Positions 1,723-19,929 of a DNA stretch of 64,000 nucleotides are shown here, piece by piece (positions within the stretch are counted from its first letter, which is position 1; each line of letters opens with the position of its first letter). The translations under genes were made by a program, and so were the position numbers. The notes under the pieces were generated by a model. That model did no database searches and was not told the origin of the DNA. It saw nothing but the letters and a program-made list of their open reading frames with translations. The stretch is from assembly GCA_046765655.1 (NCBI GenBank), contig JBKPMX010000013.1, positions 1,815-65,814 on the forward strand, given 5' to 3'. Source of the stretch: Acidobacteriota bacterium. GTDB lineage: Bacteria; Acidobacteriota; Blastocatellia; Pyrinomonadales; Pyrinomonadaceae.

Positions 1723-1740
1723 CGCACAACACACAAAGTA

Positions 1741-1794
1741 CAAAGCACCAAGGCCAAAGACCAAAGACCGTAGAGACAAGGAACAAGGAAGAAC
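1741..1794 (+). repeat. 7-nt periodic tract running up to the start codon of member 2
   Basis: CAAAGCA CCAAGGC CAAAGAC CAAAGAC CGTAGAG ACAAGGA ACAAGGA AGAAC then ATG 1795. A partly complementary TTTG-type tract lies at about 1560-1610. Confidence 0.75.
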
Positions 1795-4233
1795 ATGGAC
1801 ACATTAATTCAAGACATCCGTTTCGGAATTCGCATGCTGCTGAAGTCGCCGGGGGTTAGCATCATTGCAACGATCGCTCTCGCACTTGGGATTGGTGCCA
1901 ACACCGCCATCTTCAGCGTTGTAAATGCAGTGTTGCTGCGGCCACTGCCATTCCCGAATTCTGAAGCGCTCACTTCTGTATTTGGCACGAACCGAGAGCG
2001 CGGCGTTTTGCACGGCTCGTTTTCATATCCAGATTTTTTCGATCTGCGTGCACAGAACAGCTCGTTTGAGCGCGTGAGTTGTTATCACGACGGTGACTTC
2101 ATTCTGACCCAGCACGGAGAGCCGGCGCGACTAACTGGTGTTATCGCGACGTCAGACCTATTACCACTCCTCGGTGTCGCACCGATGCTCGGACGCGGTT
2201 TCGTACCGGATGAAGATAAACCATCGGCGAGTCGGGTTGTTGTTCTCAGTCATTCCATGTTTGAGAAGTACTTCAATTCTGATGAGAAGATCCTTAACCA
2301 GCCAATCACGCTCGATGGCAAACCCTTCATTGTCGTTGGGGTGATGCCACGTGGATTTCAGTTTCCGATTCAGAATGACTCGGTCGATCTTTGGACCACG
2401 ATCACTGGTGATGCGTCGGGTTCGGACCCGATAACCGCACAGCGTGGAGCGCACTTCTTAAAAGTGATTGGTCGGTTGAAACCTGGTGTAACTGAAGAAA
2501 AAGCCCAGGCGGACGCCGATACCATTGCCGCACGTTTGGCAGAACAGTATCCCGATACTGATTCGCGGCACGGGATGAGTGTTGAGCAAACACTTCGGGC
2601 AATTGTCGGCGATATAAGACCAGCATTACTAATTCTCCTTGGCGCCGTCTCGTTTGTGCTTTTAATCGCGTGCGCGAATGTTGCAAACCTGCTGCTTGCG
2701 CGCGCGATGTCTCGTTACAAAGAGATGGCAATTAGGTCCGCGCTTGGCGCGAGCCGTTGGCGAGTTGTCCGGCAACTATTGATCGAGAGCATACTGCTTT
2801 CTGTGGTCGGTGGCGCAATTGGTTTGCTGTTGGCCGTTTGGTGGTCTGATCTACTCATCGCCTTAGGAAAAGACGATATCCCACGGGCGACACATGTCAG
2901 CCTTGATTGGCGTGTGCTTCTCTACACGTTCGGTATCTCCGTTTTTACGGGAGTTTTATTTGGATTGGCTCCCGCATTCCATTCTGCCAAGAGTGGCCTA
3001 TCCGAGACTTTGAAAGAAGGACGCGGCGCCGGTGCAGGAGCAAGTAAGAACCGACTCCGAGCGAGTCTTGTAGTCAGCGAAGTTGCGATCGCCGTCGTGT
3101 TATTGGTTGGCGCAGGGCTCTTAATTAAGAGCTTGTGGAGGCTTAATACCGTCAACCCTGGCCTGGATCCTAAGAACATTCTCACCTTCAACGTCGCTCT
3201 GCCGGAAGTAAAGTATCCCTCCGAACGGCAGGCCCAATTCTTTAGCACCCTGAAGAAGCAATTGGAATCAATGCCAGGGGTACAGTCGGCGAGTGTCGTC
3301 GATCCGCTGCCCTTGAGTGGCGAGCGATTCAGCCTCTCGTTTGAGATCGACGGCAGGCCTGTCGCCAAAAAAGATCAACCGTCAGCCGATTTCTTCAACG
3401 TCGATCCGGGGTATTTCAAAACCATGAGTATCCCAATGATCAAAGGAAGAGATTTCGACGATCGAGATAAGCACAAATCAGCCCCAGTAATCATAGTCAG
3501 CGAAACGTTTGCGCGGCAGATTTTTCCCGGTGAAGACGTAATCGGGAAAAGAATTAAGCCCGGTATTTCGGTATTCGAAGACGAAGAGACGCCTTGGCGT
3601 GAAATTGTCGGAGTAGTTGGTGACGTTAAGAATCGTGCACTCAATACCGAGCCACGCCCAGTCTATTACGTTCCTCAAGCGCAGGTTCCGTTCAATCAAG
3701 AGATCATTGTGGTGAAAACGACCGGCGATCCACACGCCCTGGTGAAAGCGGCAACGAAAGAGGTCGGAACATTAGACGGAGACCTTGCAGTCTTCGGTGT
3801 GAAGACGATGGAGGAATACATCAGCCGATCCGTTTCCACTCCACGCTTCAATACGACCTTGCTTTCCATCTTCGCAGGAGTTGCGTTGGTGCTGACGGTC
3901 GTTGGCCTTTACGGCGTGATGAGCTATGCGGTGGCCCAACGAACAAACGAAATTGGAATTCGGTTGGCCTTGGGTGCGCAGACCAGAGATGTGCTGTCGT
4001 TGATTATTGGTCAGGGGCTGCGGCTGGTTCTAGTCGGATTAGCAATCGGGCTACTTGGTGCCTTCGCGTTAATGCGCGTGATCTCTGGCCTATTGTTTGG
4101 CGTGACTGCGAAAGATCCAATGACGTTCATCATTGTATCGGTGGTGCTGGCCGTAATCGCATTGCTGGCTTGTTACGTACCCGCACGCCGCGCGACAAGG
4201 GTCGATCCGCTGGAGGCGTTGCGATACGAATAG
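1795..4233 (+). CDS. ADOP-family duplicated orphan permease (member 2)
   Basis: N-term MDTLIQDIRFGIRMLLKSPG and [11 protein letters not shown] (TM1). FtsX hallmarks [15 protein letters not shown] and [15 protein letters not shown]. Tail [17 protein letters not shown]. 812 aa. Confidence 0.9.
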   Translation: MDTLIQDIRFGIRMLLKSPGVSIIATIALALGIGANTAIFSVVNAVLLRPLPFPNSEALTSVFGTNRERGVLHGSFSYPDFFDLRAQNSSFERVSCYHDGDFILTQHGEPARLTGVIATSDLLPLLGVAPMLGRGFVPDEDKPSASRVVVLSHSMFEKYFNSDEKILNQPITLDGKPFIVVGVMPRGFQFPIQNDSVDLWTTITGDASGSDPITAQRGAHFLKVIGRLKPGVTEEKAQADADTIAARLAEQYPDTDSRHGMSVEQTLRAIVGDIRPALLILLGAVSFVLLIACANVANLLLARAMSRYKEMAIRSALGASRWRVVRQLLIESILLSVVGGAIGLLLAVWWSDLLIALGKDDIPRATHVSLDWRVLLYTFGISVFTGVLFGLAPAFHSAKSGLSETLKEGRGAGAGASKNRLRASLVVSEVAIAVVLLVGAGLLIKSLWRLNTVNPGLDPKNILTFNVALPEVKYPSERQAQFFSTLKKQLESMPGVQSASVVDPLPLSGERFSLSFEIDGRPVAKKDQPSADFFNVDPGYFKTMSIPMIKGRDFDDRDKHKSAPVIIVSETFARQIFPGEDVIGKRIKPGISVFEDEETPWREIVGVVGDVKNRALNTEPRPVYYVPQAQVPFNQEIIVVKTTGDPHALVKAATKEVGTLDGDLAVFGVKTMEEYISRSVSTPRFNTTLLSIFAGVALVLTVVGLYGVMSYAVAQRTNEIGIRLALGAQTRDVLSLIIGQGLRLVLVGLAIGLLGAFALMRVISGLLFGVTAKDPMTFIIVSVVLAVIALLACYVPARRATRVDPLEALRYE

Positions 4234-4244
4234 GTTCTCATTCT

Positions 4245-4393
4245 CCCCGGGCTTTAGCCCGGGGTATGGGCCGTTCTAGTTTCGAAACCGTTTCAACGGT
4301 TTCGCAGCAATCGTTCACGAGATGGTCGAGAAACCGTTGAAACGGTTTCCAGAGTTCTCGTATGACGCTTGATCCCCAGGCTAAAGCCTGGGG
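4245..4393. repeat. composite palindromic element: two inverted units, each made of two short hairpins
   Basis: ccccgggctttagcccgggg ... gaaaccgtttcaacggtttc // gaaaccgttgaaacggtttc ... ccccaggctaaagcctgggg. Each quoted block is itself a stem-loop, and the two halves are inverted copies. Confidence 0.85.
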
Positions 4394-4408
4394 TGAATGA
4401 GACAAAAC

Positions 4409-4457
4409 AAAGCGCAAAGACCAAAGACCAATGACCAAAGACCAAAGACTAAAGACC
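4409..4457 (+). repeat. heptanucleotide tandem repeat (AAAGACC type, 7 units) 5 nt upstream of the member 3 start
   Basis: AAAGCGC AAAGACC AAAGACC AATGACC AAAGACC AAAGACT AAAGACC tgacg ATG(4463). Confidence 0.9.
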
Positions 4458-4462
4458 TGACG

Positions 4463-6871
4463 ATGAACACTCTTCTGCGTGACATCCGTTTTGCATTTCG
4501 AAACCTGGCAAAGCGTCCAACGTTTGCAGCGATTGTGATTGTGGTGCTCGGCCTCGGAATCGGATCTACAACGGCCATTTTTTCCATCGTCGATGCACTA
4601 CTGCTGCGGGCGCTGCCTTATCGGAACGCTGATCGCCTCGTCATGCTCCGCGAAGTTGATGCTAAAGGTAATTTGATGCGGATGTCGTCGGCGAATTTTT
4701 CGGATGTCAGCAAACAAAATCGCAGCTTTGATGAAGTCGCATTTTCCGCGGGCAGCTTTCCGCTGGTTATCACAGGTTCTGTAGAACCCGGCCGCGCGAG
4801 AATGTCGTATGGCTCCGCGAGTTTTTTTCGCGCGATGGGAGTCGCACCGATCGTCGGCCGCTCGTTCTTACCGGAGGAGGAAAAATATAAACAGTACGGT
4901 GGGCCAGTTTCAGCTGTCCTGAGCTATGGCTATTGGCAGAAGGCTCTCGCCGGACGATTAGATTTCGCCAATATCAAACTGAATATTGACGGCGTGGACT
5001 GCAACGTCGTCGGAGTAATGCCGCCTTCGTTTGATTATCCCGCGAACACCGAGCTCTGGGTCACGTCAAACGCAGAGCCACCAAACCCTTCACGCACTGC
5101 TCACAACTTTCCCGTCATCGCACTGCTTAAAGAAGGCGTGACGATCGAACAGGCCCAGGCTGATCTGACCCTGATTGCGAAACAGCTAAAGCAGGAGTAT
5201 GGAGAGAAAACAGACGCCGTCGATTTCGGCATCACTCCCCTACAAAGTTTTCTGACGCGAAACGTCAAACAAGGTCTCTGGCTCTTGTTTGGTGCCGTTG
5301 GGCTCTTATTACTTGTCGCCTGCGCTAATTTCTCAAACCTGCTGTTGGGCCAACTGATGTCGCGACAACGCGAGTTCACGCTGCGCATTGCGCTTGGGGC
5401 TTCTCGCGCTCGTCTCATCAGGCAAGTGTTAGTGGAAAACCTGATGCTGACGCTTCCCGCTGCTGCTCTTGGGATTCTGCTGGCAACGTTTGGCGTTCGT
5501 CTTGTCTCAGCTTTGGAAAAAGGAACCCTGCCGAAAATTAACACCATAGGTGTCGATGCGCGGGTTCTTACCTTCGCGTGTGCGCTCAGTGTGTTGATCG
5601 CCGTAGCGTTGAGTTTTTTGCCCGGCTTTAGTTCTCGACGCGATCTAAACGCCGGGTTGAAGGCAGGGACGCGATCACAAACTCGCAGTGGTGGCTATCT
5701 GCGAAGCGGGTTTGTCGTGGGCCAGATTGCATTGACAGTGGTGTTGTTAACAGGCGCGGGCTTGTTGGTGCGCAGCTTTTTGAAGGTGATGGCAGTAAAT
5801 CCGGGCTTCGATTCAAGTGGAGCTTTGGTAATGACCCTGTCGTTGCCCACAACGATAAGTGTCGAAGAGGACGAACGAATCCGACAGTTTTATGTCGGAC
5901 TGCTTGAGCGTGTTGGACAAATACCAGGTGTGACCTCGGTGGGCGGTATAAGCAGCCTGCCTCTTCAAGGTAGCGGCCGAAATGGACAGTTCTTGATCGA
6001 TAACGATCCTAATCAGCCGGGTTACGCCGTTTTTCAAGTTGCGAGCAGCGGATATTTTTCCGCAATGAGAATTCCTCTCCTGCGCGGTCGACTATTCGAC
6101 AGCTCCGACAAAGTAAATGGACAACATGTGGCGGTGATTAGCCAATCGTTGGCTAACCGCTGGCCCAAGGGCGACCCGATTGGACAAAAAATTCAATTCG
6201 GCAACATGGACACTGACAAGCACTTGATGGAAATCGTCGGTGTCGTGGGCGATGTGCATCAATCAAGTCTTGAGGGTGAGGCGCAGCCAACGGTCTATGG
6301 CTTTTCACTTCAGCGACCTCAATGGTGGCAAGTTGCAAGTCTCGAAATCGTTGTTCGTTCGCAGTCTGATCCGAAAGCTTTGATCCCTTCGCTTCGCACA
6401 ACTGTGCAAAGTCTCCGATCCGACGTGCCAATGGATTTCAAAACGCTTCAAGACGTGTATTCGTCGGCGTTCGATGCTCGTCGTCTCACTTTGACATTGT
6501 TTGGTGTGTTTGGCGGAGTCGCGTTGCTAATCGCAATCATCGGCCTGTACGGGATGCTAAGTTTCTCCGTAACCGAAAGAACGCGAGAAATGGGAATCCG
6601 CATCGCGTTAGGTGCTCAGCGGGGTCGTGTGCTTGGTCTGGTGATCACGCAAGGATTGAAGCTCGCGGCCATTGGAGTTGCGATTGGGTTGCTTGGCGCC
6701 TGGGGCGCGACCCGTTTGATGAATGCTTTGTTGTTCGGCGTCACACCTACTGATTCGCTGACGCTTACGATGGTTGTGCTAACGCTCGGCGTGGTCGCGT
6801 TGTTTGCGTGTTATGTGCCTGCACGCCGTGCCACGAAAGTGGATCCTTTGGTGGCGTTGCGAGAGGAATGA
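4463..6871 (+). CDS. ADOP-family duplicated orphan permease (member 3)
   Basis: The ORF opens at 4397, but the first 22 codons only translate the AAAGACC heptad tract. Family-consensus start MNTLLRDIRFAFRNL at ATG 4463. [15 protein letters not shown] / REMGIRIALGAQRGR. Tail [17 protein letters not shown]. Confidence 0.88.
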   Translation: MNTLLRDIRFAFRNLAKRPTFAAIVIVVLGLGIGSTTAIFSIVDALLLRALPYRNADRLVMLREVDAKGNLMRMSSANFSDVSKQNRSFDEVAFSAGSFPLVITGSVEPGRARMSYGSASFFRAMGVAPIVGRSFLPEEEKYKQYGGPVSAVLSYGYWQKALAGRLDFANIKLNIDGVDCNVVGVMPPSFDYPANTELWVTSNAEPPNPSRTAHNFPVIALLKEGVTIEQAQADLTLIAKQLKQEYGEKTDAVDFGITPLQSFLTRNVKQGLWLLFGAVGLLLLVACANFSNLLLGQLMSRQREFTLRIALGASRARLIRQVLVENLMLTLPAAALGILLATFGVRLVSALEKGTLPKINTIGVDARVLTFACALSVLIAVALSFLPGFSSRRDLNAGLKAGTRSQTRSGGYLRSGFVVGQIALTVVLLTGAGLLVRSFLKVMAVNPGFDSSGALVMTLSLPTTISVEEDERIRQFYVGLLERVGQIPGVTSVGGISSLPLQGSGRNGQFLIDNDPNQPGYAVFQVASSGYFSAMRIPLLRGRLFDSSDKVNGQHVAVISQSLANRWPKGDPIGQKIQFGNMDTDKHLMEIVGVVGDVHQSSLEGEAQPTVYGFSLQRPQWWQVASLEIVVRSQSDPKALIPSLRTTVQSLRSDVPMDFKTLQDVYSSAFDARRLTLTLFGVFGGVALLIAIIGLYGMLSFSVTERTREMGIRIALGAQRGRVLGLVITQGLKLAAIGVAIGLLGAWGATRLMNALLFGVTPTDSLTLTMVVLTLGVVALFACYVPARRATKVDPLVALREE

Positions 6872-6896
6872 TGGGTTTTTGTGGGCACTCAATATA

Positions 6897-7010
6897 GTGG
6901 GAAACAGTCAGTACCGAAACGCGGTAGCGGTGGGTCCGCTCTGTTACCGCCCGTTGAGTGTTAGGTGGCGGATCCGACGCTACCGCGTTTCGGTACTGAC
7001 TGTTTCCCAC
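6897..7010. mobile_element. palindromic MITE/REP-like element, family A copy 1
   Basis: gtgggaaacagtcagtaccgaaacgcggtagcg (6897-6929) and its exact reverse complement cgctaccgcgtttcggtactgactgtttcccac (6978-7010). The same arms recur at 23738 and 54766. Confidence 0.85.
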
Positions 7011-7049
7011 TGTGATGACAAATATGAAAGCTCTTAGGAATACAAGCAA

Positions 7050-9473
7050 ATGAATTTACTATTGCAAGACATCCGCTTCGGTTTTCGAATGCTGTTCAAG
7101 AATCCAGTTGTCACCCTAGTAGCGATCTTAGCGCTGACGCTCGGCATTGGTGCGAACACTGCGATCTTCAGCGTCGTGTATGCAGTGATGCTTGGATCGC
7201 TGCCATACAAGAATGCCGATCAAATAGTAGTTGTATGGGAGAAACAGCCGGAAAACGATCAGAACACGATCAACATAGGTAATTTCGCCGACTGGAAGAA
7301 ACAGAACACTGTGTTTTCCGACATGGCTGCATTTTTCGATTACAGAAGTCAGGCGACTGGGGAGGGAGCGCCAGAAGAGATTCCATCCCAACTTGCTACA
7401 CCCAACCTGTTTTCCGTTTTGGGGGTGAGCCCAATCATCGGTCGCGGCTTTACCGAGGAGGATGCAGCGGAGGGTTCTCCCAGCGTCGTTGTAATTAGTT
7501 ATGGACTTTGGCAGCGGCGCTACGGTGCCGACCCAGGAATCGTCGGTCGAAAAATCACACTCAATAGCAATCCGGCAACAGTTGTGGGTGTTATGCCTCG
7601 AGATTTTGGTTGGCATGTTCGCAAAGCATCGCGCACGCGCAAACCGGCGGAACTTTGGGCACCGTGGCGTTTTAGTTCGGGCATGCTCGAGCGCCGTGGC
7701 CGCTTCGCAATGTCAGTCGCTCGGCTGAAACCGGGAGTCACAGTCGAACAAGCACAGAGCGAGATGAACACGATCGCGTCGCGGCTAACCCAGCAATATC
7801 CTGACTTCAACACAAACTGGGGTGTCAATGTTGTACCTGTGCGGACGCAATTCACTGGTGACCTTCGTAAGCCGCTCTGGATTCTACTCGGGGCAGTTGG
7901 GTTTGTTCTGTTGATAGCGTGTGCGAATGTCGCGAATCTTTTACTCGCGCGTGCTACAGCGCGAAGAAAAGAGATCGCAGTGCGTATCGGTCTTGGCGCA
8001 AGTCGGTCGCGTGTTGTGCGTCAGTTGCTAACTGAAAGCTTATTGCTGTCAGCGGTCGGCAGTACGTTAGGTTTGTTAGTAGCTGTCTGGGGAACGAGGG
8101 CGCTAATTGCAATTGGTCCACCCTCGTTGGCAAGCGTCACAGGCGTCGGCGTCAACATTCCCGTGCTTGGCTTCACGCTCGGTGTTGCCTTACTCACGGC
8201 GATCCTTTTCGGACTAGTGCCGGCATTCGAAGCTTCACGTTTCAGCTTCAATGACTCGTTGAAAGAAGGTGGAAAGAATATCGGTGGTAGCGCGGGTAGC
8301 CACCGTTTTCGAAACCTGTTTGTCGTAACGCAAGTGGCGCTTGCCCTGTTGTTACTGGTAGGCGCAGGCTTGTTACTGAAGAGTCTCAATCGCTTGCAAT
8401 CAGTCGATCCGGGGTTCAACGCGAAGAACCTTTTGACCTTGCGAGTTAGTTTGCCTCCTCAAACGCCCGACGGAAAGTGCGTCTCCTTCTTTCAAACTTT
8501 ACTAGAACAAGTACGTGGAATTCCGGGCGTAGAGTCAGCCGGCGCAATCGATACATTGCCCTTCACCTCACAACATTCCGGAACGATCGTGGAGATCGTA
8601 GGAGAGGCGAAACGTCCTGCTGGCCAGGAACTGGAAACCGGCGTTGGCGTCACGGATCAAGATTACTTCAATGCAATGCAGATCCCACTCAAGCGCGGGC
8701 GTCTATACACAAAACAGGAAGCGATCGAAGCCCGGCATGTTGTTGTCGTAAACGAGACCTTCGCTCGAGTGAATTTTCCTGGCCAGGATCCATTGGGTAA
8801 ACGCGTCATCATTTACATGAAAGACGAGAACGTACCTTCTGAAATCATCGGCATTGTCGGCGACAGCAAGCACATGGGCCTCGATAAGATGCCGGACGCA
8901 ATGTCTTACTGGCCTCACGCCGAACTTGCGTATGCGCAAATGACTTTGGCGATCCGCACGAAAGGGGATGCGGCAAGTTTTGCACCGGCCATTAGGGAAC
9001 TGGTTTCGCGAATGGATCCAAACCAGCCCATCAGTGATGTCGCAACAATGGAGCAACTCCTGGCTGTATCAGTGTCACGCTCAAAATTTAATACGAGTTT
9101 GCTCGTAATCTTTGCGATCGTTGCATTGGTCATGGCTGTTGTCGGGATCTACGGCGTGATGTCTTACACGGTAACGCAAAGGACGCACGAGATTGGTGTG
9201 CGCATGGCACTCGGTGCGCAAACGCGTGACGTGATGAAGTTGGTGGTAATGCGCGGCCTCGTTCTTGGACTGATTGGTGTTGCGGTTGGCGTGGCAGCGG
9301 CCTTCGCGCTAACGCGATTGATGACAACGCTATTGTTCGAAGTGACGCCAACGGACGCAACTGTTTTTGCGAGCGTCGCCGTGGGTTCGTTCCTGGTCAC
9401 GTTGCTGGCCTGTTCAATTCCAGCACGACGCGCGACCAAAGTAGATCCACTTAAGGCGCTCAGGTACGAATGA
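7050..9473 (+). CDS. ADOP-family duplicated orphan permease (member 4)
   Basis: [34 protein letters not shown] / [15 protein letters not shown]. Tail [17 protein letters not shown]. Confidence 0.9.
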
Positions 9474-9478
9474 AAGAT

Positions 9479-9570
9479 GGCCTTGGGCCTTCGGCCTTAG
9501 GTCTTTGCGCCTTGCGCGCAACAGGTACCAAGGGCGAAGGCCAAAGAGCAAAGGCCAAAGACCAAGGACC
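9479..9570. repeat. stop-to-start spacer hairpin built from complementary heptad tracts
   Basis: Left GGCCTTG GGCCTTC GGCCTTA GGTCTTT GCGCCTT (9479-9514). Right CAAGGGC GAAGGCC AAAGAGC AAAGGCC AAAGACC AAGGACC (9529-9570). The arms are imperfectly complementary. ATG at 9577. Confidence 0.85.
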
Positions 9571-9576
9571 AGTTTT

Positions 9577-12012
9577 ATGCAGTCAATACTTCAAGACCTT
9601 CGCTACGCGGTGCGGTCGCTTCTGAAGCAGCCGGGTTTCACGATTGTTGCCATCATCACATTGGCGCTTGGTATCGGCGCGAACACCGCAATCTTCAGCG
9701 TGGTTAATTCGGTGCTGTTGCGTCCGTTGCCATTTCCGCAGGCCGATCAACTAATAAAGGTAGCACTGGTCAATACCCGCCTTGGTGAAGATGACGGCGT
9801 GTTGGGCGTCGCCGACTTTCTCGATTGGCGAGACCAGAATCACGTATTCCAGGATGTTGCGGTATTCACTGATAGCTGGTTCAGCATCACCGGTGATCGA
9901 GAGCCAATGCGGGTTCGAGGCGCATGGGTTACAGCCGGTTTCTTCTCAACACTGGAAGCACAGCCGTTACTCGGCCGGACATTTATCCCGGGCGATGATG
10001 TTAAAGATGGTCCATTGCTGGTCATCTTGAGCCACCGCTTGTGGCAACAGCGCTTTAATTCTGATCCTCAGATCATCAATAAAGCTGTCACGCTGAACGG
10101 GAAGAGCCGCACGATTGTCGGCGTGATGCCCCCGTCGTTTAGCTTTCCTCCAGAGAGTGAAAGGTCATTGCCCGGAGAAGTTGAGCTTTGGGTGGTGCAT
10201 CCGCTTGAGCGAACTCAGCACCGTGGACCGTACTACCTTACCGGAATCGCGAGATTAAAACCCGGTGCAACTCTGGACCAAGCGCGATCTGAACTCGGCA
10301 ACATTAGCCTATCGATCCGACAAGCCAATCCTCTAACTAACGCCGACACGATTCTGTCGGCGCGTTCGCTGAAGGAGTCAATGGTCGGAAATGTTCAGCG
10401 CTTGCTGTTTGTCTTGTTAGGTGGCGTAGCGTTTGTGCTGCTGATTGCATCCGTTAACGTCGCAAACCTTTCTTTGTCGCGAGCTGCGCGTCGGGCTCCC
10501 GAAATCGCCATACGTAGGGCGCTCGGTGCAGGGCAGGGACGAATAATCAGACAGTTGCTAACTGAAAGTCTATTGCTCGCAGGCGCAGGTGCGATTGCCG
10601 GCGTGGTGTTGGCATGGTGGGGAATGGATGTGTTGCTGGCAATCGGATCCTCCAACCTTCCGCGACTAGATGAAGTAAAGATCGATAAGAGTGTGCTGGC
10701 CTTCACCACTGTGATTTCTGTGTTGAGCGGTTTGCTTTTTGGTTTGTTTCCGGCGTGGCAAGCATCGCGTGTCAAGGTTAATGACTCTTTGAAGAGCGCA
10801 CGCGGAGGTGGAGAGGGCCGCGGATGGCGTAGGACGAGAAGCCTGCTAGTCGTCACTGAAGTTGCGCTATCGATCGTTTTGCTTGCTGGTGCTGGTCTGA
10901 TGCTCAACAGCTTTCTGCGATTGCGGCGCGTCAGTCCAGGATTTGCACCGGAGAACATTCTGACAACGGAAATCAATCTGCCCGCAGCGCGCTACGAAGA
11001 GTCAAAACAGATTAACAGCTTCTATGAACAATTGATCGAACGTGTAAGCCACCTTCCCGGAGTAGAAGCAGTGGGAGTAGGCATGAGTCTGCCGCCAAAT
11101 CTGCTTTCGATTAGCGACACTTTCACTATTGAGGGTGAACCCGTAACGTCGGGCGTTACTGATCCTTCAGTGCCGGTCCTGGGTGTTAGCTCAGGTTACT
11201 TCAGTGCGTTAGGCGTTCAGTTGCTCGCGGGGCGAAACTTTTCCGATACAGATCGACTAGACGCACCACCGGTCGTCATCATTAACGAGACCTTCGCTCG
11301 TCGCTACTTTCCGAACCAGAACCCGATTGGTCGACGAATGAAGATCGGTGGGCCAGAACGCCCGAAAAATCAGTGGATGCAAATTGTCGGACTCTCTGGT
11401 GATGTAAAGTACGGCGGACTTGAGACTGCTCCGGACCCTGCTTTTTACCAGCCCTACCAGCAAATTCCCTGGAACAATAGCTATCTAGTCGTGCGCGCAC
11501 GCTCAGATCCGCGACAGCTCGCGGGCGCGATCCGCAACGCGGTCTGGTCGATAGACAAAGATTTGCCCGTCGCCAATCTAAAGACGATGGAAGAATTACT
11601 TTCCGAATCCGTCGCGCGTCCTCGTTTTAGAACATTCGCCTTTCTGGTTCTGGGGCTACTTGCTCTTGTGCTTGCGGTGACTGGAATTTACGCCGTGATG
11701 TCGTATCTCGTGACGCAACGCACACGCGAGTTTGGCATTCGCCTCGCACTCGGAGCACAACGAAGTAGCGTACTGCGTTTGGTCATTCGTCAGGGCATGA
11801 GCTTGGCGTTGATAGGAGTAGTCATCGGTTTGATCGCTGCCTGGGCCTTGATGCGACTCATGACCAGCCTGCTTTATGGAATCGAGTCACGTGACCCACT
11901 GACATTCGCTTCGATCACGATCCTGTTATTGGCAGTGGCGCTCGTAGCGTGTTGGCTGCCGGCGCATCGCGCAACGAAAGTCGATCCACTGAAGGCGCTT
12001 CGATACGAGTGA
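9577..12012 (+). CDS. ADOP-family duplicated orphan permease (member 5)
   Basis: The ORF-track start (TTG 9505) runs through the heptad tract. Consensus start [21 protein letters not shown] at ATG 9577 with AAGGA upstream. [15 protein letters not shown] / [15 protein letters not shown]. Tail [17 protein letters not shown]. Confidence 0.88.
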
Positions 12013-12020
12013 AAGGCGCG

Positions 12021-12097
12021 GGCTTAGGCCTTAGACCGTTTGGTCTTTGGCCTTTGGGACGGACGCACCCGCGACCAAGGGAGGAGACCAAAGACCA
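12021..12097. repeat. stop-to-start spacer hairpin built from complementary heptad tracts
   Basis: Left GGCTTAG GCCTTAG ACCGTTT GGTCTTT GGCCTTT. Right CCAAGGG AGGAGAC CAAAGAC CA. ATG at 12102. Confidence 0.8.
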
Positions 12098-12101
12098 CGA
12101 T

Positions 12102-14573
12102 ATGCAGTCCATACTTCAAGATCTCCGTTACGGCCTCCGGATGCTGGTGAAGCAACCGGGCTTCACGATCGTCGCTGTGATCACGCTGGCTCTCGGAGTC
12201 GGAGCAAACACTGCGATCTTCAGTGTCAGTGACAAGTTGCTGTTCAGATCGCTTGCAGTTCACGAGCCTCAGCAACTCGTTTTGATCAATTCAGTCAGTA
12301 CGAACCCATACTTCGTCAGCAACGCGTTTTCATATCCGGTTCTCAACGACTACCGCGCTGATGGAACCGTCTTTTCGGGGTTGATTGGATTCAATCGCAC
12401 GCAGCTGGAATGGCAAAACGGCGATCGTGTGGAGCGAGTGGCGAGTGAGTTTGTGACCGGTAACTACTTCGACGTCCTCGGTGTCAAAGCCGCTCGCGGT
12501 CGGACATTCTCACCGGAAGAGGACCGAACCCCGGGAACGCAACCATTTGTTGTTGTTAGCGAGGCGTTCAGGCAAAAGTATTTTGGAGAAGAGAATCCGA
12601 TCGGAAAAACCCTCACCTTGAATAATAACTCGCTGACTGTGATCGGAGTGGCACCAGCGTCATTCACCGGAATGATACTCGAGCGTCCGACACAGCTGTG
12701 GGTGCCTGTGCTGATGCATCCGCAGTTGGCTCAATCGAAATTCATCGAGAAGCGCACGGATGCTTTTTTGCAACTACTCGGTCGAATCAAGGACGGTCTT
12801 TCCGTGTCGCAGGCGCAAGCCGAATTCGACCTCGTCGCGCAACGAATTACGGAGGCACACACGCCCGCAGGAACGATCACAAAAGGACTTCCGTTCAGTG
12901 AGCGCCACATCCAGTTCGAGCCCGGCGGAAAGGGCGTTTCAATACTTAGAAAAAGATTCTCCTCGCCACTCAAGCTTTTGATGATCGTCGTCTGTCTTGT
13001 TTTGTTTATTGCTTGCGCGAACGTTGCCGGACTGCTTCTCGCTCGAGGTTTGGCGCGTCGCAAAGAGATCGGTATCCGGCTTTCACTCGGTGCTAACCGT
13101 TGGCGCTTAACACGGCAATTAATGACTGAAAGTTTGTTGTTGGCGTTCATCGGCGGTAGTGTCGGACTGCTGATCTCTCCGTGGCTCGTCACGTTGATCG
13201 TTAAGAGCCAATCACGACTCGACATCGCACGCGCGTTGCTCGGTCAAGGTGTCGACCGTCGCGTACTTGCGTTCACCGCTTTGACCACTCTCGTTGCGGG
13301 GCTGATGTTTGGAATTGTTCCCGCATGGCAGAGTACCAGGGCGCATCTCGTTCCAGTGTTGAAGGAACAGGGCGGCGTTTCGAATCAACGCGAACGGCGC
13401 TTCAACGTTCGCAACCTTCTCGTCGTGGGTCAGTTAGCGATCTCTATAGTCGTGCTGATTGCCGCTGGTCTTTCCATACGGAGCCTCCGAAACCTGCTCG
13501 CGATTGATCCCGGATTCAAAGCCGAACATCTGCTCGTCGTCCCGTTTGAGTTGGACGACAAGAAATATGACGAAGCCCGTGGTCAAGCGTTTCAACAGCA
13601 GGTGTTTGAACGACTAGCAAAACTGCCTGGTGTTGAGGCTTCGAGTTATGGGTTGGTAATGCCGTTCAGTGGTAGCAAGTTTATGGGGAGCATCTTCGTC
13701 GAGGGACGGCCGCCTGAACAGAATCAGCAGACCGCGTTTGACGGGAGCGAGGTTGGCCCAGGCTATCACGAAACCATGGGAATCAAGATAACGGCCGGGC
13801 GTGGGTTTACTGAACAAGACACAGCGAACTCGCCAAAAGTGGTTGTGATTAACGAAGCCCTCGCACAACGATTATTCCCCGGGGAAAACGCTCTTGGCCG
13901 CAGACTAATGCGCAACACCAAAGGTCCAGCGCTCGAGATCATAGGCATCACCGCAAACAGTAAATACCACGACCTTACAGAAGAGCCGGTACCGCATTTT
14001 GATCTACCCGCATTGCAAAAAGGCTATGGCAGTTACACCAACATCGTTCTGCGAACCAGGAACGATCCCGCTGATTTGGTCGCAGCGGTTCGCGCGGAGC
14101 TGCTTGGCTTAGATCCATCGATCGATGTAAGTGACACCGCGCCTATGTCCAACCAAATTAGCAATGCGCTGGCAGCGGTTACTCTCGCTTCGACGCTTGT
14201 TGGAGTTTTCGGGTTCCTCGCATTGGTGTTAGCGAGCGTCGGTTTGTACGGCGTCATGACTTGGATCGTCAGTCGTCGCACGCACGAGGTCGGCATTCGG
14301 ATGGCGTTGGGAGCGAAGCCTGCAGACGTGCTGCGACTCGTCCTCCGGCAAGGATTGATACTAACAATCGGAGGATTGTTGATCGGATTGATTGCTGCAC
14401 TGGTCGCGACACGATTCATTGACACGCAACAACTCTACGGCGTCAGTCCAAGGGATGCGTTTACATTCGGAGTCGGCGCTGTGGTGCTTGCGGCTGTATC
14501 GCTGCTGGCCTGTTACATCCCGGCACGAAGAGCAACGAAAGTCGATCCGTTGGTGGCGCTTCGATATGAATGA
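12102..14573 (+). CDS. ADOP-family duplicated orphan permease (member 6)
   Basis: The ORF-track start 11949 lies inside the previous gene. Consensus start [21 protein letters not shown] at ATG 12102. KEIGIRLSLGANRWR / [15 protein letters not shown]. Tail [17 protein letters not shown]. Confidence 0.88.
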   Translation: MQSILQDLRYGLRMLVKQPGFTIVAVITLALGVGANTAIFSVSDKLLFRSLAVHEPQQLVLINSVSTNPYFVSNAFSYPVLNDYRADGTVFSGLIGFNRTQLEWQNGDRVERVASEFVTGNYFDVLGVKAARGRTFSPEEDRTPGTQPFVVVSEAFRQKYFGEENPIGKTLTLNNNSLTVIGVAPASFTGMILERPTQLWVPVLMHPQLAQSKFIEKRTDAFLQLLGRIKDGLSVSQAQAEFDLVAQRITEAHTPAGTITKGLPFSERHIQFEPGGKGVSILRKRFSSPLKLLMIVVCLVLFIACANVAGLLLARGLARRKEIGIRLSLGANRWRLTRQLMTESLLLAFIGGSVGLLISPWLVTLIVKSQSRLDIARALLGQGVDRRVLAFTALTTLVAGLMFGIVPAWQSTRAHLVPVLKEQGGVSNQRERRFNVRNLLVVGQLAISIVVLIAAGLSIRSLRNLLAIDPGFKAEHLLVVPFELDDKKYDEARGQAFQQQVFERLAKLPGVEASSYGLVMPFSGSKFMGSIFVEGRPPEQNQQTAFDGSEVGPGYHETMGIKITAGRGFTEQDTANSPKVVVINEALAQRLFPGENALGRRLMRNTKGPALEIIGITANSKYHDLTEEPVPHFDLPALQKGYGSYTNIVLRTRNDPADLVAAVRAELLGLDPSIDVSDTAPMSNQISNALAAVTLASTLVGVFGFLALVLASVGLYGVMTWIVSRRTHEVGIRMALGAKPADVLRLVLRQGLILTIGGLLIGLIAALVATRFIDTQQLYGVSPRDAFTFGVGAVVLAAVSLLACYIPARRATKVDPLVALRYE

Positions 14574-14620
14574 GCAAAAGGGGAAGAGCAAAGCGCTAAG
14601 AGCAAAGCGCAAAGAGTGCT
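14572..14620 (+). repeat. 7/14-nt periodic tract starting in the stop codon of member 6
   Basis: GAGCAAA AGGGGAA GAGCAAA GCGCTAA GAGCAAA GCGCAAA GAGTGCT. A partial complement cttagcccttcgctcgttgcttc follows at about 14626-14648. Confidence 0.75.
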
Positions 14621-14665
14621 TACCACTTAGCCCTTCGCTCGTTGCTTCAAGATAGGAGAATCGAG

Positions 14666-17167
14666 ATGCTTCACGATTTACGTTACGGCTTGCGAATGTT
14701 GCTTAAGCGACCAAGTGTGACCTTGATCGCCGTATTGTCCCTGGCGCTAGGCATCGGTGCGAACACAGCAATCTTTAGTTTAATTGACGCAGTGATGTTG
14801 AAGTCACTTCCGATACACGAGCCTGACAGATTGGTCCTATTTGGCAACGGTGAGGACGCCGGAGTCTCAAATGGTTTTCCTAGAGAGAAAACTGATTTGT
14901 TTTCGTTCCCGTTTTATCGGGAGGTGCGACAGCGGACACAAACTCTTGAGGGAGTCGGCGCGTTATTGAGTATTCCATGGACCGTACACGGCAGAATCAG
15001 CGCAAACGGCACGACGAGCGACATTGAAAAACTGAATGTGCAACCAGTATCAGGGACCTATTTCCCAGTGCTCGGAGTAAACGCCAGTCTTGGCCGTACA
15101 CTCACCGATGCTGACGATCAAATTGTCGGAAATCATCCTGTAGCAGTCATCAGTCACTCGCTATGGCAGACGAGACTCGGTGGGATCTCGAACGCTGTGG
15201 GGCAAACAATCGCGATCGATCAAGTCGTTTATACGATCGTGGGAGTCGCACCAAAAGAGTTTTTTGGAACGACTGTCGGACAATTGCCGGACGTGTGGAT
15301 ACCGCTCGCAATGCAAAAGAAGCTTCCGCCGGCTTATTGGGATGGTCGCGACGACAACGGGTTTCAATCGATGTATTTGATCGGGCGATTGAAAAGCGGC
15401 GTTACAACTGAACAAGCGCAGGCCGAAGTTAATTTATTCTTCAAGCAGTGGATGCTTTCAGCAGCCGACAATCCACCAAACGCCAGACAGCAGGCTGGCC
15501 TCCAGAATGCCAGCATCGAGCTCACGAGTTTGCGAAGAGGCATATCAGACCTTCGTAAACAATTCTCCGTCTCTTTGAAAATTCTGATGGCGGTCGTGGG
15601 ATTGGTTTTGCTGATCGCGTGTGCGAACGTCGCGAATATTCTGCTAGCCAACGGTGCTGCCAGGCGAAGAGAGTTTGCGGTTCGCATGGCCGTTGGTGCT
15701 GGGCGCATGCGTCTCGTTAGACAGTTGCTGACGGAGAGTCTGCTAATCGCAATCGTCGGCGGTATAGCTGGAGTCATCATCGCCTGGTGGGGAAGCCGAA
15801 CATTGGTGCTGATGGCGTCAGACGGTCCCGATTCGCTGCCGATCGATGTCTCGCCCAACGGTCGAATCCTCGCATTTACAATTGTCGCTTCGTTGTTGTC
15901 GGCGATTGTATTCGGCGTCGCGCCCGCGTTACGAGCTGCGCACGTCGAGCCAAACAAGTCGTTGAAGAGTGGTAGGACAGGAGCAGCGAATGCGTTTCAA
16001 AGTCCACTCGGAAAGCTGCTGGTGATTTCACAGGTAGCACTCTCGTTGGTGCTTCTGGTTGGTGCCGGACTTTTCGTTCGCACACTAATCAATCTCGAAG
16101 GTCTTCCGAGCGGATTCAACGTGCACAATGTGGTTCGGTTCGATGTCGATCCATCTGCAACTGGTTATAAAGAAGACGATCCAAAACTCCCGATACTACT
16201 TCGCGACATTGAAGACAACGTGAAGCGTGTACCAGGCGTCGATTCCGCCGCGTTTTCGTTTTTCGTGTTCCGGCAGGGACAGTGGAGCAGCCTCGCGAGA
16301 GTGAGCGAGGATCTACCCGAGCAGCAGAGAATCATCAGAAACAATGTCGTGGGAATTGATTTCTTTCGCGTGATGGGTCTGCCCTTGATTGCTGGCAGGA
16401 ACTTCACGACTGCCGACACGTTGGAAAGTCCGAAGGTGGCTGTCATCAGCGAACTGATGGCCCAGCGACTGTTTTCGAACAAGAATCCATTGGGCCAAAC
16501 ATTCAGTATTGGCGGCCCCAAAAACGAATCCATTGAGGTCATTGGTGTAGTTAAGGATGCAAAGTATGGATCGCTAACGGAAGAGACGCGCCCGATGGCG
16601 TACTACTCTCACGCGCAAAGGCCTCAGTCTCTCCCTAACTTTATGGTGCGAACGCAGGGCCCACCCGATCAGGTCATTGCGAGCGTGCGGCAGGCCATCA
16701 AACAAGTGAATCCAAATGTTCCAATTGACGAAGTAGTCACCTTGTCGGACCACATCGGTCGTTCACTCGTGCAGCAAAAATTGATTGCGAGGTTGGCGTC
16801 GTTTTTCGGACTGCTTGCGCTGTTACTCGCGTGCATTGGTCTCTACGGCCTGATGTCGTACGCAGTCGCACGAAGAACAAACGAAATTGGTATTCGGATG
16901 GCTTTGGGTGCACGTAGAGGAAACGTCCTGTGGCTGGTCCTGCGTGAGGCAATGATACTTGTAGTGATTGGTCTCGCGTTGGGGTTAGGAGCTGCACTTC
17001 TAACGACGAAAACCGCAGGGTCTCTTTTGTTCGGTCTAAAACCGAATGATCCCTTAACTATTGCGCTCGCCTCGTCGGTGTTGCTGGCGGTGGCGGTATT
17101 TGCAGGCTACCTGCCGGCGCGGCGAGCATCGCGAGTCGATCCGATGACGGCACTGAGAGAGGAATGA
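14666..17167 (+). CDS. ADOP-family duplicated orphan permease (member 7)
   Basis: Consensus start MLHDLRYGLRMLLKRPS at ATG 14666 with AGGAGA just upstream (ORF track uses TTG 14642). REFAVRMAVGAGRMR / [15 protein letters not shown]. Tail PARRASRVDPMTALREE. Confidence 0.88.
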   Translation: MLHDLRYGLRMLLKRPSVTLIAVLSLALGIGANTAIFSLIDAVMLKSLPIHEPDRLVLFGNGEDAGVSNGFPREKTDLFSFPFYREVRQRTQTLEGVGALLSIPWTVHGRISANGTTSDIEKLNVQPVSGTYFPVLGVNASLGRTLTDADDQIVGNHPVAVISHSLWQTRLGGISNAVGQTIAIDQVVYTIVGVAPKEFFGTTVGQLPDVWIPLAMQKKLPPAYWDGRDDNGFQSMYLIGRLKSGVTTEQAQAEVNLFFKQWMLSAADNPPNARQQAGLQNASIELTSLRRGISDLRKQFSVSLKILMAVVGLVLLIACANVANILLANGAARRREFAVRMAVGAGRMRLVRQLLTESLLIAIVGGIAGVIIAWWGSRTLVLMASDGPDSLPIDVSPNGRILAFTIVASLLSAIVFGVAPALRAAHVEPNKSLKSGRTGAANAFQSPLGKLLVISQVALSLVLLVGAGLFVRTLINLEGLPSGFNVHNVVRFDVDPSATGYKEDDPKLPILLRDIEDNVKRVPGVDSAAFSFFVFRQGQWSSLARVSEDLPEQQRIIRNNVVGIDFFRVMGLPLIAGRNFTTADTLESPKVAVISELMAQRLFSNKNPLGQTFSIGGPKNESIEVIGVVKDAKYGSLTEETRPMAYYSHAQRPQSLPNFMVRTQGPPDQVIASVRQAIKQVNPNVPIDEVVTLSDHIGRSLVQQKLIARLASFFGLLALLLACIGLYGLMSYAVARRTNEIGIRMALGARRGNVLWLVLREAMILVVIGLALGLGAALLTTKTAGSLLFGLKPNDPLTIALASSVLLAVAVFAGYLPARRASRVDPMTALREE

Positions 17168-17173
17168 AAGGAG

Positions 17174-17273
17174 TTCGGATTTCGGACTTCGGATATATCG
17201 GATTTTGTCCGGCGCGCAATCGAACTCTTAATCCGCGCCCGCAAAATCTGAAATTCGAATTCCGAAATCCGAA
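17174..17273. repeat. spacer hairpin with TTCGGAT / ATCCGAA heptad arms
   Basis: Left TTCGGAT TTCGGAC TTCGGAT ATATCGG. Inner GC stem ggcgcg..cgcgcc. Right AAATCTG AAATTCG AATTCCG AAATCCG AA. ATG at 17286. Confidence 0.85.
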
Positions 17274-17285
17274 GAGGGAACTGAC

Positions 17286-19718
17286 ATGCTGCATGACATA
17301 CGTTACGGGCTCCGATTGCTACTGAAGAACTTTGGCTTCAGCCTTATCGTGGTGGTAACCCTCGCGCTAGGCATCGGCGCCAACGCCGCATTGTTCTCGG
17401 TCGTGAACGGCGTCTTGTTGAAACCTCTCCCATTCCCCGAGCCCGAACAACTCATCACGATTCATCAAAGCAAACCAAACTTCGACGCCGGCGCGATGCC
17501 GTATCCAAATTTTTTGGACCTACAGCGTGAGAACAAAACGCTGTCAGCCATGGCTATCTCACGCGGTTACGCATACAGCCTGGTCGGTGTGGGTGAAGCT
17601 CAACGTGTTACTGCACGATTGATCTCAGCAGACTACTTCACAGTGCTTGGGGTAAAGCCGCAACTGGGCCGAGCGTTTGTCCCGGCTGACGACAGCAGCG
17701 CCGCTGATCCGGTCGTACTTATTAGCTCGACGTTGTGGTCGGAGAAGTTTGGCTCCGCAAACGATGTTCTCGAGAAAAGTCTCACGCTCGACAACAAAAG
17801 CTACAAAGTGGTCGGTGTTATTCCGGCCACAGTCCCGTTCACACGTGGCGTTGATGTGTTCGTTCCAATTGCTCAATGGAATAGTCCGGCACTGAAGAGT
17901 CGGAGTGCCGCGTTGGGCATACATGGTATCGGTAGACTCAAACCGGGTGTAACCGTTGCGCAAGCGGACTCAGATCTCAATCGAATAATGCAGGCGCTGG
18001 CTGTTGAGTATCCAAATACAAACAAGGGGAACGGCGCGAAGATCATCCCAATGATGGAGCGCGTCGTGGGCTCTGTTCAGGCAACGCTTTGGACGTTACT
18101 TGCAGCGGTAGGTTTTGTGTTGCTGATCGCGTGCGTGAACGTTAGTAATTTGCTGCTCGCAAAATCAACGAGCAGGACGCGTGAATACGCGATTCGTGCC
18201 GCGCTCGGCGCCAGCCGTTGGCGTTTGCTGCGACAGTCACTGACGGAAACAACGCTGCTCGCGCTCCTGGGTGGCGCGTTTGGTCTCGCTGTTGCCGCGT
18301 GGGGAACCTCCCTCGCGCTGAAAGCTCTGCCGACCGCCTTGCCGCGTGCAAATGAGGTGGTACTTGATCGTCGGGTGGTTCTGTTTACCCTGGGTGTGTC
18401 ACTGCTCACTGGCTTACTGGTTGGCCTCATTCCAGCTCTGAAGACTTCACAACGCCGCTTCAGTCAAACGTTGAAAGAAGGTGGACGCTCAGCGAGCGCC
18501 GGGCGCGCGCGCGTGCAAGGCATCTTCGTCGCCGTTGAGATGGCGCTTGCCTTGGTGCTCCTGATTGGCGCCGGCTTGATGATTCGGACATTGAATGCGT
18601 TGTGGAACGTCGATCCAGGCTTTCGTGCAGAGAACGTGATGACGTTCAGCATCAGCTTACCGCCATGGATGGCGAATTCGAGTCCGCAAACCGTCCGGAC
18701 CGCGCTGCGCGAGCTGAATGAAAAGATCAGGACCACGCCGGGAGTCGAAGCTGTGTCGTTGTCAGATGGGGGGCTTCCGATACAAGGTGCAGATGATTTG
18801 TACTTTTGGATCGAGGGTGAGCCGAAACCTACGAGCACAAGTGATATGCACGATGCGTTCGTCTATACGGTCGAACCGAACTACTTGGATGCGATGAGTA
18901 TTCCACTTAAACGTGGTCGTTTCTTTACCGCGACCGACGATGAACGTGCCACACCAGTCGCGGTTATCGATGAGACATTTGCGAACAAACACTTCAAAGA
19001 TAAAGACCCGATAGGTTCTCGAATACTCATCGGTGAAACTCCACTGCAAATCATTGGTGTTGTCGGACATGTGAAGCAGTGGGGTTTAGACGGCGACACG
19101 CCTGACAGATTACAAGCTCAGCTTTATCTATCATTCCGCGGTATGGCTGATAACAACATGCCGGGAGTTATCGGCGCTGTCGTTCGCTTTAAGGGCGAAG
19201 GTAGCGGCACTGAAGCCTCTCCGTTCTTTGCTTCAGTGCGTAGCGCGATCCAGTCTCAGAACGACCAGAACGTAGTGTCGAATGTGCAGACATTGAATCA
19301 GGTGATCTCCGATTCACTGTCGGAACGACGCTTCTCGATGATCGTTCTCGGCGCGTTTGCAACCGTGGCCCTACTGTTGGCGAGCCTGGGAATTTACGGA
19401 GTCATTTCATACCTCGTCGGTCAGCGTACGCATGAACTCGGAATTCGCGTCGCGCTTGGTGCGGGACGAAATGACATCATCCGGCTCGTGTTGAGTCATG
19501 GGATGAAGATGGCGATTGCCGGGGTCGCGGTTGGTTTGGTGGCGGCGTTTGGGTTGACGCGCTTGATGTCCACGATGCTTTTTGGAGTGAAACCGACAGA
19601 CCCTGTGACGTTTGGGATCATCGCGCTGGTTCTGATGATCGTGGCGTTGTTGGCGTGCTATCTACCAGCGCGACGCGCAACGAAGGTGGATCCATTGACC
19701 GCGTTGAGATCTGAATAA
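17286..19718 (+). CDS. ADOP-family duplicated orphan permease (member 8)
   Basis: MLHDIRYGLRLLLKNFGF. REYAIRAALGASRWR / [15 protein letters not shown]. Tail [17 protein letters not shown]. Confidence 0.9.
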   Translation: MLHDIRYGLRLLLKNFGFSLIVVVTLALGIGANAALFSVVNGVLLKPLPFPEPEQLITIHQSKPNFDAGAMPYPNFLDLQRENKTLSAMAISRGYAYSLVGVGEAQRVTARLISADYFTVLGVKPQLGRAFVPADDSSAADPVVLISSTLWSEKFGSANDVLEKSLTLDNKSYKVVGVIPATVPFTRGVDVFVPIAQWNSPALKSRSAALGIHGIGRLKPGVTVAQADSDLNRIMQALAVEYPNTNKGNGAKIIPMMERVVGSVQATLWTLLAAVGFVLLIACVNVSNLLLAKSTSRTREYAIRAALGASRWRLLRQSLTETTLLALLGGAFGLAVAAWGTSLALKALPTALPRANEVVLDRRVVLFTLGVSLLTGLLVGLIPALKTSQRRFSQTLKEGGRSASAGRARVQGIFVAVEMALALVLLIGAGLMIRTLNALWNVDPGFRAENVMTFSISLPPWMANSSPQTVRTALRELNEKIRTTPGVEAVSLSDGGLPIQGADDLYFWIEGEPKPTSTSDMHDAFVYTVEPNYLDAMSIPLKRGRFFTATDDERATPVAVIDETFANKHFKDKDPIGSRILIGETPLQIIGVVGHVKQWGLDGDTPDRLQAQLYLSFRGMADNNMPGVIGAVVRFKGEGSGTEASPFFASVRSAIQSQNDQNVVSNVQTLNQVISDSLSERRFSMIVLGAFATVALLLASLGIYGVISYLVGQRTHELGIRVALGAGRNDIIRLVLSHGMKMAIAGVAVGLVAAFGLTRLMSTMLFGVKPTDPVTFGIIALVLMIVALLACYLPARRATKVDPLTALRSE

Positions 19719-19909: not shown

Positions 19910-19929
19910 TAACAGGAGGGGAAAAAGAA

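Follow-up and report, generated by a model that had tools for sequence, protein, structure and literature searches.

The question raised by this locus is why the spacers between a run of paralogous genes should fold, almost from stop codon to start codon, as long hairpins built of short repeats. The window, by which we mean the whole stretch of 64,000 nucleotides that was analysed, has a G+C content of 52-54%, and its closest public relatives are Pyrinomonadaceae/Blastocatellia soil MAGs. Some 20 paralogs of the ADOP duplicated permease family (TIGR03434, E 3e-300) are arranged in tandem along it, and the genes of a sigma-54 regulator and a kinase come after them. An earlier note on this DNA had described complementary heptad tracts at 9479-9570 and in eight further spacers, and had proposed for them a role as terminators or insulators, as elements of mRNA processing or stability, or as gates over the next ribosome-binding site. 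We find that the hairpin at 9479-9570 and its eight siblings are ordinary members of a class of periodic-arm hairpins that extends over the whole genome.

The sequence at 9479-9570 is as it was first described. A (GGCCTTN)x5 tract lies opposite an (AAGGCC/AAGACC)x5-6 tract and 92 of the 103 nt of the spacer are covered, so that the arms nearly fill it. The 5' arm (9479-9514) consists of five G/T-rich heptads (GGCCTTN), found by TRF as period 7 with 5.0 copies of GGCCTTG and paired in the minimum-energy fold. It is followed by an inner GC-rich stem extension and loop (9515-9536), placed by the fold and carrying SNPs in near-identical strains, and then by the 3' arm (9537-9571) of C/A-rich heptads (AAGGCC/AAGACC; TRF period 7 with 5.0 copies of AAGACCA). 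The AAGGA that had been noticed in this arm near the ATG at 9577 is located at 9564-9568, that is, at -13 to -9 relative to the start, and falls within the predicted stem base.

The folding energy of each spacer was compared with those of 100 dinucleotide shuffles on the + and - strands. All nine spacers fold far better than the shuffled controls (z from -2.8 to -16) and do so about equally well on the two strands. The outcome for folding that the earlier note had named as refuting did not occur, and all nine loci are therefore real. The z-scores at 9479 are -4.8 (+) and -4.3 (-). The weakest of the nine is the GGTCTTT/AAAGACC-type hairpin at 12021-12097 (-2.8/-3.5), which shows ~5 changes per 89 nt in the allele of contigs L166 and L167. 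The hairpin at 17174-17273 (-7.2/-6.3) is of the CGGATTT/AAATCCG family with arms at 17174-17215 and 17235-17273, and that at 31369-31475 (-9.7/-8.6) is of the GAGATTT/AAATCTC family with arms at 31370-31411 and 31433-31474. A second member of the AAATCTC family, with a unique 68-nt loop, is found at 33996-34152 (-3.8/-4.6), and its 5' arm is nearer to the 5' arm of the 31369 hairpin than to its own 3' arm. At 36655-36780 (-4.0/-7.3) the arms are GGCCTTA/GGTCTTT and the 3' arm has overgrown to (AAAGACT)x8 (TRF, 8.1 copies at 36724-36780), the pairing being that of the fold. The CATTTGC/GCAAATG-type hairpin at 46893-46997 (-9.2/-11.9) has arms at 46893-46933 and 46956-46996. Two of the nine are nested: at 39251-39360 (-5.1/-3.8) outer ATTGCCG/CGGCAAT arms enclose inner CAAAGGG/CTCTTGC arms, and at 23668-23905 (-16.1/-15.0) outer heptad arms at 23680-23704 and 23861-23884 enclose a long family-A palindromic element, to which the z-score is mostly owed. 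The loops of the nine span 20-160 nt and contain no ORF.

Three further spacers in the window belong here. At 1555-1794 (z = -7.0) TTTG-type and CAAAG-type heptad arms enclose an unrelated 96-bp palindrome; at 41838-41999 a single overgrown arm (GAGCTAA x14.6 by TRF) is followed in the sequence by a short complementary tract; and at 56297-56383, between the sigma-54 regulator and kinase genes, the arms have a period of 8/9 bases (ACAGGATT/AATCCTGT; TRF period 8 at 56352-56382). A scan of the window at the Rfam gathering thresholds gave zero families; there is thus no rRNA in it, and the hairpins sit between protein genes.

The hairpins are long and fill their spacers, which sets them apart from ordinary intrinsic terminators, and most of them lack a clear T-run, both as the earlier note had said. 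Genome-wide, TTTT occurs within 10 nt downstream of 6 out of 197 hairpins, equal to the background of 3%, and a terminator scan of positions 1-20000 of the window gave no match at any hairpin (24 found, 24.5 expected). The reading as intrinsic (Rho-independent) terminators, one of the roles first proposed, is therefore rejected.

In the assembly of 4.39 Mb, which represents a genome 82% complete, tandem tracts number 680 at period 7, 129 at period 6 and 239 at period 8, and 75% of the period-7 tracts are intergenic. Within 450 nt, an inverted partner is present for 422-480 of the 715 merged tracts and a direct one for 27-57; genome-wide, the inverted and direct partners number 110 and 11 for period-8 tracts and 47 and 16 for period-9 tracts. 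On the basis of crude long-ORF gene calls and of arm borders taken from local alignments, the genome contains about 189-235 hairpins, whose arms and loops have median lengths of 28 and 37 nt respectively, the 5' arm being a short array with a median of 4 units. More than 50 unit families occur side by side. A reading as integron attC sites, in which every cassette gene is followed directly by a hairpin, was set aside on the ground of gene context, since the class is present in every such context genome-wide. In a genus-mate (G010), the hairpins have 9-mer instead of 7-mer arms.

The arms have a fixed polarity: in 160 hairpins G exceeds C in the 5' arm, and in 19 the reverse holds (53 and 12 when counted per family). 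The composition of this arm is 12% C, 27% G and 37% T. As a hairpin reads alike from either strand, this G-rich 5' polarity is a property of the element rather than of transcription or replication; in a small sample from two other genomes the rule is mixed. Stop codons explain the C-poor 5' arm at most in part: their density of 0.077 there compares with 0.032 for the 3' arm and with 0.061 after composition-matched shuffling, and 57 of 189 arms have none.

The position of the hairpins with respect to genes is equally regular. The base is found at a median distance of 9 nt from the stop codon that ends the gene reading into the hairpin, and in 145 of 197 cases it lies within -16 to +30 of that codon; in 42 it overlaps the last codons. 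The number of hairpins per kb of spacer is 0.44 between tandem and 0.39 between convergent genes, twice that between divergent genes (0.18), which fits a tolerated insertion and also a role at gene 3' ends.

The arms of a family keep one order of variant units across dispersed copies, for example GATTTCGGATTTCGGAATGCGGATTTCGGATTT, and a 23-mer of this arm has exact matches in more than 120 metagenome contigs. The GAGATTT/AAATCTC family has 19 genomic copies with conserved arms of ~45 nt and unrelated loops, and within the genome as a whole 110 of 133 loops are unique. A shared loop motif was sought, and only weak k-mer enrichments of 2-3x were seen, mostly from one MITE-like core. This core of ~175 nt inside GTGAATC arms, with 8-10 copies, is the exception to loop uniqueness; a MITE-like class would have a conserved interior, and for the hairpins in general this reading fails. 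Loops may also contain other hairpins, MITE-like palindromes or a gene. The hairpins thus have a definite architecture, with a polarity, a position at stop codons and families of arms, and, as described below, they turn over among strains.

The gene that can occupy a loop links the hairpins to a known protein family. The genome has two PF05635 (IVS-protein, Avd-like) genes, on contigs C191 (3765-4079) and C5 (11885-12202); their best solved relative is Xanthomonas XCC0516 (2GSC), and the family shares homology with the Avd protein known from diversity-generating retroelements. Inverted periodic arms flank each of the two genes, (GTGAATA)n at C191 and 8-mers of the GGGGACNC type at C5; of the period-7 and period-8 arm families of the gene-less hairpins, these are the commonest. 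Across 30 PF05635 loci drawn from about 28 genomes of the class Blastocatellia, inverted arms surround the gene in 29, compared with 1 of 30 displaced controls; the arm period at the 29 bracketed loci is 7 in 25, 9 in 3 and 8 in 1. The same bracketing is seen for 7 of 8 PF05635 genes on annotated plasmids from five phyla, and in every case the G-rich arm is the 5' one, the hosts being Nostoc punctiforme, two Calothrix, Picosynechococcus, Gemmatirosa, Azospirillum and Riemerella. No homology was seen outside the arms between the interior of the PF05635 cassettes and the MITE-like core. Conserved untranslated motifs were likewise not seen in the cassettes, in a comparison where about half of the ORF lines are unreliable as all loci were taken as +. 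In the literature searched we found no published link between heptamer-repeat hairpins in general and PF05635 genes.

Two plasmid and genomic arrangements deserve separate mention. In plasmid NZ_CP016476.1 of Picosynechococcus sp. PCC 7003 (L301, 126152-127281) a type III-B CRISPR operon is interrupted between cas10 and cmr3 by a PF05635 gene, for a 'four helix bundle protein', that has inverted heptad-like arms. At two other loci (L233, 1120-2013, and L298 on the Gemmatirosa plasmid, 227-788) the order is 5' arm, 3' arm, gene, 3' arm, so that the 5' arm can find its pairing partner on either side of the gene; were the two direct 3' arrays to recombine, the PF05635 gene would be lost and an empty hairpin would remain.

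Orthologous junctions in related genomes have different occupants. The aldolase|AcrB junction that holds the C191 cassette has four in four relatives, namely the PF05635 cassette, a nested gene-less hairpin, a single array of 43 nt and a further nested hairpin. Next to it, at the isochorismatase>NAPRTase junction, three relatives differ as well: the first carries a PF05635 cassette, the second retains nothing but a solo 3' array from that unit family, and in the third the spacer is 38 nt long and its short heptad array belongs to another family. PF05635 cassettes are therefore gained and lost, and the gene-bearing and gene-less forms share the same sites. We infer that the gene-less hairpins derive from, or spread with, the PF05635 cassettes.

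Several repeat systems in the literature resemble these hairpins in part. The closest is that of Xanthomonas campestris and X. axonopodis, where 70-75 pairs of GGGAATC arrays, always convergent, are found per genome (Rehm et al. 2015, PMC4692102). Those arrays are intergenic tandem heptads, typically of 4 units; their G-rich strand is found no more than 50 bp downstream of stop codons, the repeats are depleted between divergent ORFs and in coding DNA, and their lengths are unconserved between sister species (PMC4692102). Here too tandem units of period 7 (at least 2-3 copies) are over-represented, the paired arrays are convergent with the G-rich strand 5', and they are intergenic, near stop codons and depleted between divergent ORFs. 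The GGGAATC repeats, however, are of one unit type and were interpreted as G-quadruplex-forming (PMC4692102), whereas more than 50 unit families occur here and GGCCTTN, GAGATTT, GTACTTT, CGGATTT and GTGAATC have no run of three or more G. Since most units lack G-tracts, quadruplexes cannot be the common principle. Rehm et al. (PMC4692102) draw no link from the GGGAATC repeats to PF05635 genes.

The second likeness is to the ORF-bearing 23S intervening sequences of Coxiella burnetii and Leptospira, which sit in helix 25 or 45 and for which experiments have demonstrated excision by RNase III (PMC4990558). That of C. burnetii has a 28-bp terminal stem with GACAGAT heptads 5', in a copy number that varies among strains, and an S23p (PF05635) ORF in the loop, and RNase III cuts in its stem have been mapped experimentally (PMC4990558). 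The window hairpins have the same complementary termini, with a stem of at least 20 bp made of heptameric repeats, and the full plan including the PF05635 ORF is that of both PF05635 genes of the genome and of 29 of the 30 in the class. Unlike the intervening sequences, the window hairpins lie between protein genes, not in 23S rRNA, and have no PF05635 ORF in the loop.

The STRRs of heterocystous cyanobacteria are tandem heptanucleotide arrays of several families (Mazel et al. 1990, as cited in PMC4692102). As far as that citing account describes them, they share with the present class their several families, intergenic position and abundance but are presented as tandem arrays and not as hairpin pairs; among the GGGGAYT repeats of Nostoc PCC 7120 there are only few inverted pairs (Rehm et al., PMC4692102). 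In Nostoc and Calothrix, plasmid PF05635 genes are bracketed by inverted heptad arms.

REP, BIME and REPIN sequences of enterobacteria and pseudomonads are abundant extragenic palindromes at gene 3' ends, variable among strains and with secondary effects on mRNA. A REP measures ~35 nt, is fixed in sequence, lacks internal periodicity and is spread by RAYT transposases. The hairpins share with them the extragenic palindromic form, the 3'-end position, the rarity between divergent genes and the strain variability, and differ from them in having microsatellite-like arms of many sequence families. Foldback (FB) transposons of Drosophila have long inverted termini of short tandem subrepeats in variable number around a variable centre; they are eukaryotic, of kilobase scale and without homology, and the analogy is one of architecture only.

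Contigs from closely related populations allow the evolution of single hairpins to be followed; identity is 96.6-97.6% in the flanking genes, and divergence at 4-fold sites amounts to 7.5-10.7%. Three alleles of the 9479 hairpin are found: the 5' arm always has five units and the 3' arm six, five or four, two 3'-arm units having been lost in the allele of six related strains. Whole heptads are gained or lost in one arm only, including a one-sided indel of 14 nt. There are 8 substitutions per 89 aligned bases (9%), close to the 7.5% at 4-fold sites, and among these 8 none is compensating in the near-identical strains. The predicted stability of the alleles is -49.9, -43.6 and -31.7 kcal/mol, and the weakest is the commonest. 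The hairpin therefore changes at roughly the neutral rate and by slippage of whole units, which is what the earlier note had said would refute a conserved structure. The orthologous spacer of the closest species representative (82% nucleotide identity) is unrelated and hence of no use for covariation.

These data bear on the proposal that the hairpins are selected RNA elements of the permease array, which by intercistronic RNase III processing, by stabilising 3' ends or by insulation would determine how each paralog is expressed. In its favour are the very stable stems directly after stop codons, their depletion between divergent genes, the presence of a gene for RNase III in the genome, the cutting by this enzyme of heptad-bearing stems in intervening sequences (PMC4990558) and the transcription of most Xanthomonas repeats (PMC4692102). 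Processing of the hairpins by RNase III is, by analogy, plausible. Against selection for such a role are the fall in stability from -49.9 to -31.7 kcal/mol in the commonest 9479 allele, the lack of compensatory changes, the near-neutral substitution rate, the equal folding of both strands, the occurrence of the class in every gene context and, as shown below, unrelated occupants of one junction in 97%-identical strains. Mismatches in the stems, scored relative to the direction of the flanking genes, are G-T in 109 cases and A-C in 102, so there is no G-U bias of the kind left by RNA-level selection. The signatures of RNA-level selection are absent, there is no sign of a function selected at each locus, and we consider this proposal unlikely.

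Whole spacers are replaced as well. At the junction 6872-7049 a long palindromic element is present in the window, while eight strains whose flanking genes are 94-97% identical in nucleotides have an AAATCCG-family heptad hairpin. Homology ends exactly at the stop codon and resumes ~8 nt ahead of the start codon; there is no clear target duplication at the breaks between the different occupants, and the arm edges are fuzzy. Two hairpin alleles at this junction have nearly identical arms and a loop that is ~27% diverged with indels. For this single pair of alleles, the arms differ by ~6% and 4-fold sites by 9.9%, and the faster divergence of loop than of arm in the pair could explain why loops look unique within families. 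In relatives at ~84% nucleotide identity, (TAGGACCTA)n arrays take the place of the 9479 spacer; more widely in these relatives (L163, L165, L170 and G015 (L002)), ADOP junctions are filled by direct arrays of this nearly palindromic 9-mer. The relatives compared are a small sample, and heptad hairpins are patchy among them.

Other palindromes in the window are also of note. A long near-perfect palindrome (GTGGGAAACAGTCAGTACCGAAACGCGGTAGCG...) is present in three copies, at 6872-7049, 23738-23850 and 54756-54910. Another of ~66 nt (TCGAAACCGTTTCAACGGTTTCG...CGAAACCGTTGAAACGGTT), at ~4281-4346, forms the apex of an outer hairpin (4234-4462) and is missing at that exact point in contig L166, giving a filled/empty pair at a hairpin apex. 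The gene content and order of the ADOP array itself (1-54755) vary among close strains, contig L170 having a different upstream paralog and L166 stopping two genes further on. The array therefore rearranges quickly, perhaps via conserved gene ends and repeat-filled spacers.

A second proposal is that the hairpins are plain microsatellites, produced by slippage that favours 7-nt units and by local template-switch inversion, with no mobile element involved and with a link to PF05635 that is not causal. An excess of heptanucleotides is widespread in bacteria and, in the accounts that cite the original work, is ascribed to slippage (Mrazek 2007, cited in PMC4679880 and PMC4692102), and indels of whole units are observed at the hairpins. 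Within a family, moreover, an arm resembles the arms of other hairpins almost as much as its own partner, which is the best match in only 22 of 108 hairpins; the covariation of arms within families shows a weak excess (0.77 compared with 0.64) that is biased by the delimitation of the arms. Slippage of this kind does not account for an order of variant units that recurs at dispersed loci and in metagenome contigs, for the polarity of 160 to 19, for a ratio of inverted to direct partners of 10:1, for arms that bracket 29/30 and 7/8 PF05635 genes, or for the gain and loss of cassettes at orthologous sites. We regard it as quite unlikely.

The third proposal, that the hairpins are translational gates in which the 3' arm hides the next ribosome-binding site until the stem opens, stood at 9577, where the AAGGA is paired in the stem base, and in part at 23919, where an AGGAG is partly paired, and fell as a general rule over the ~11 hairpin junctions, as the Shine-Dalgarno sequence is 3' of the main stem or absent at 1795, 17286, 31501, 34181, 39376, 42000 and 47086, as hairpins are equally common between convergent genes, where no start codon follows, and as the six-strain allele has dispensed with two 3'-arm units, so that we hold it very improbable. 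Membership of the RNA thermometer/translational gate class is rejected for the same failure to sequester the binding site at most junctions.

We therefore favour, as the probable explanation, that the hairpins are a near-neutral or selfish, fast-turnover class of repeats, gene-less relatives of the PF05635 cassettes and not regulators tuned to their locus. Such an element consists of a G/T-rich heptad array 5', its C/A-rich complement 3' and a unique, quickly changing loop, with versions of period 8 or 9 as well. It sits directly after stop codons, would settle at gene 3' ends as the place where harm is least, and evolves by slippage of whole units and by replacement of the whole spacer. In the PF05635 cassette the same kind of arms is placed around the gene of the 23S-rRNA intervening-sequence protein, an Avd-like four-helix bundle. 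If the permease array is transcribed, the 25-45 bp stems would be expected to form double-stranded RNA, which RNase III would cut as it does in the Coxiella intervening sequence, separating the cistrons as a side effect.

Some observations do not sit easily with this explanation. As no transposase, target-site duplication or defined element end was found for the hairpins, mobility is deduced from presence and absence. The mostly unique loops are not what a simple copy-and-paste element predicts. The genome has 2 PF05635 genes to ~200 hairpins, and most arm families are without a gene-bearing copy. PF05635 genes might instead insert preferentially into pre-existing hairpins, which would reverse the derivation.

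A more far-reaching version of the favoured explanation is possible, and we offer it tentatively. The periodic-arm hairpins may be the non-autonomous, gene-less form of a widespread and undescribed mobile cassette whose only gene, an Avd-like PF05635 pentamer, recognises or maintains the heptad arms, and which inserts at stop codons and hairpin apices. Such a cassette would unite the STRRs, the Xanthomonas GGGAATC repeats, the 23S intervening sequences and the acidobacterial spacer hairpins.

The hairpins also affect the annotation of the genes. ORF callers read upstream through the 3' arms, with the result that several ADOP starts, those called at 4397, 9505, 11949 and 31474, are over-extended; the conserved MxxLLQDLRY N-terminus places them at 4463, 9577, 12102 and 31501. 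In another locus (L306, 926-1433) the upstream gene ends inside the 5' arm, which supplies the TGA.

To our knowledge, reports of bacterial tandem heptanucleotide repeats go back to 1990, and no origin or function has been generally accepted for them. Here one genome displays the whole architecture: the arms are paired, the G-rich arm has its fixed place on the 5' side and the hairpins are anchored at stop codons. Across phyla this architecture is tied to PF05635 cassettes, and such cassettes are gained and lost at orthologous sites. The spacers of the permease array should accordingly not be taken as conserved regulators. The tie to PF05635 makes the old question testable, namely whether an Avd-like protein binds or moves these hairpins.
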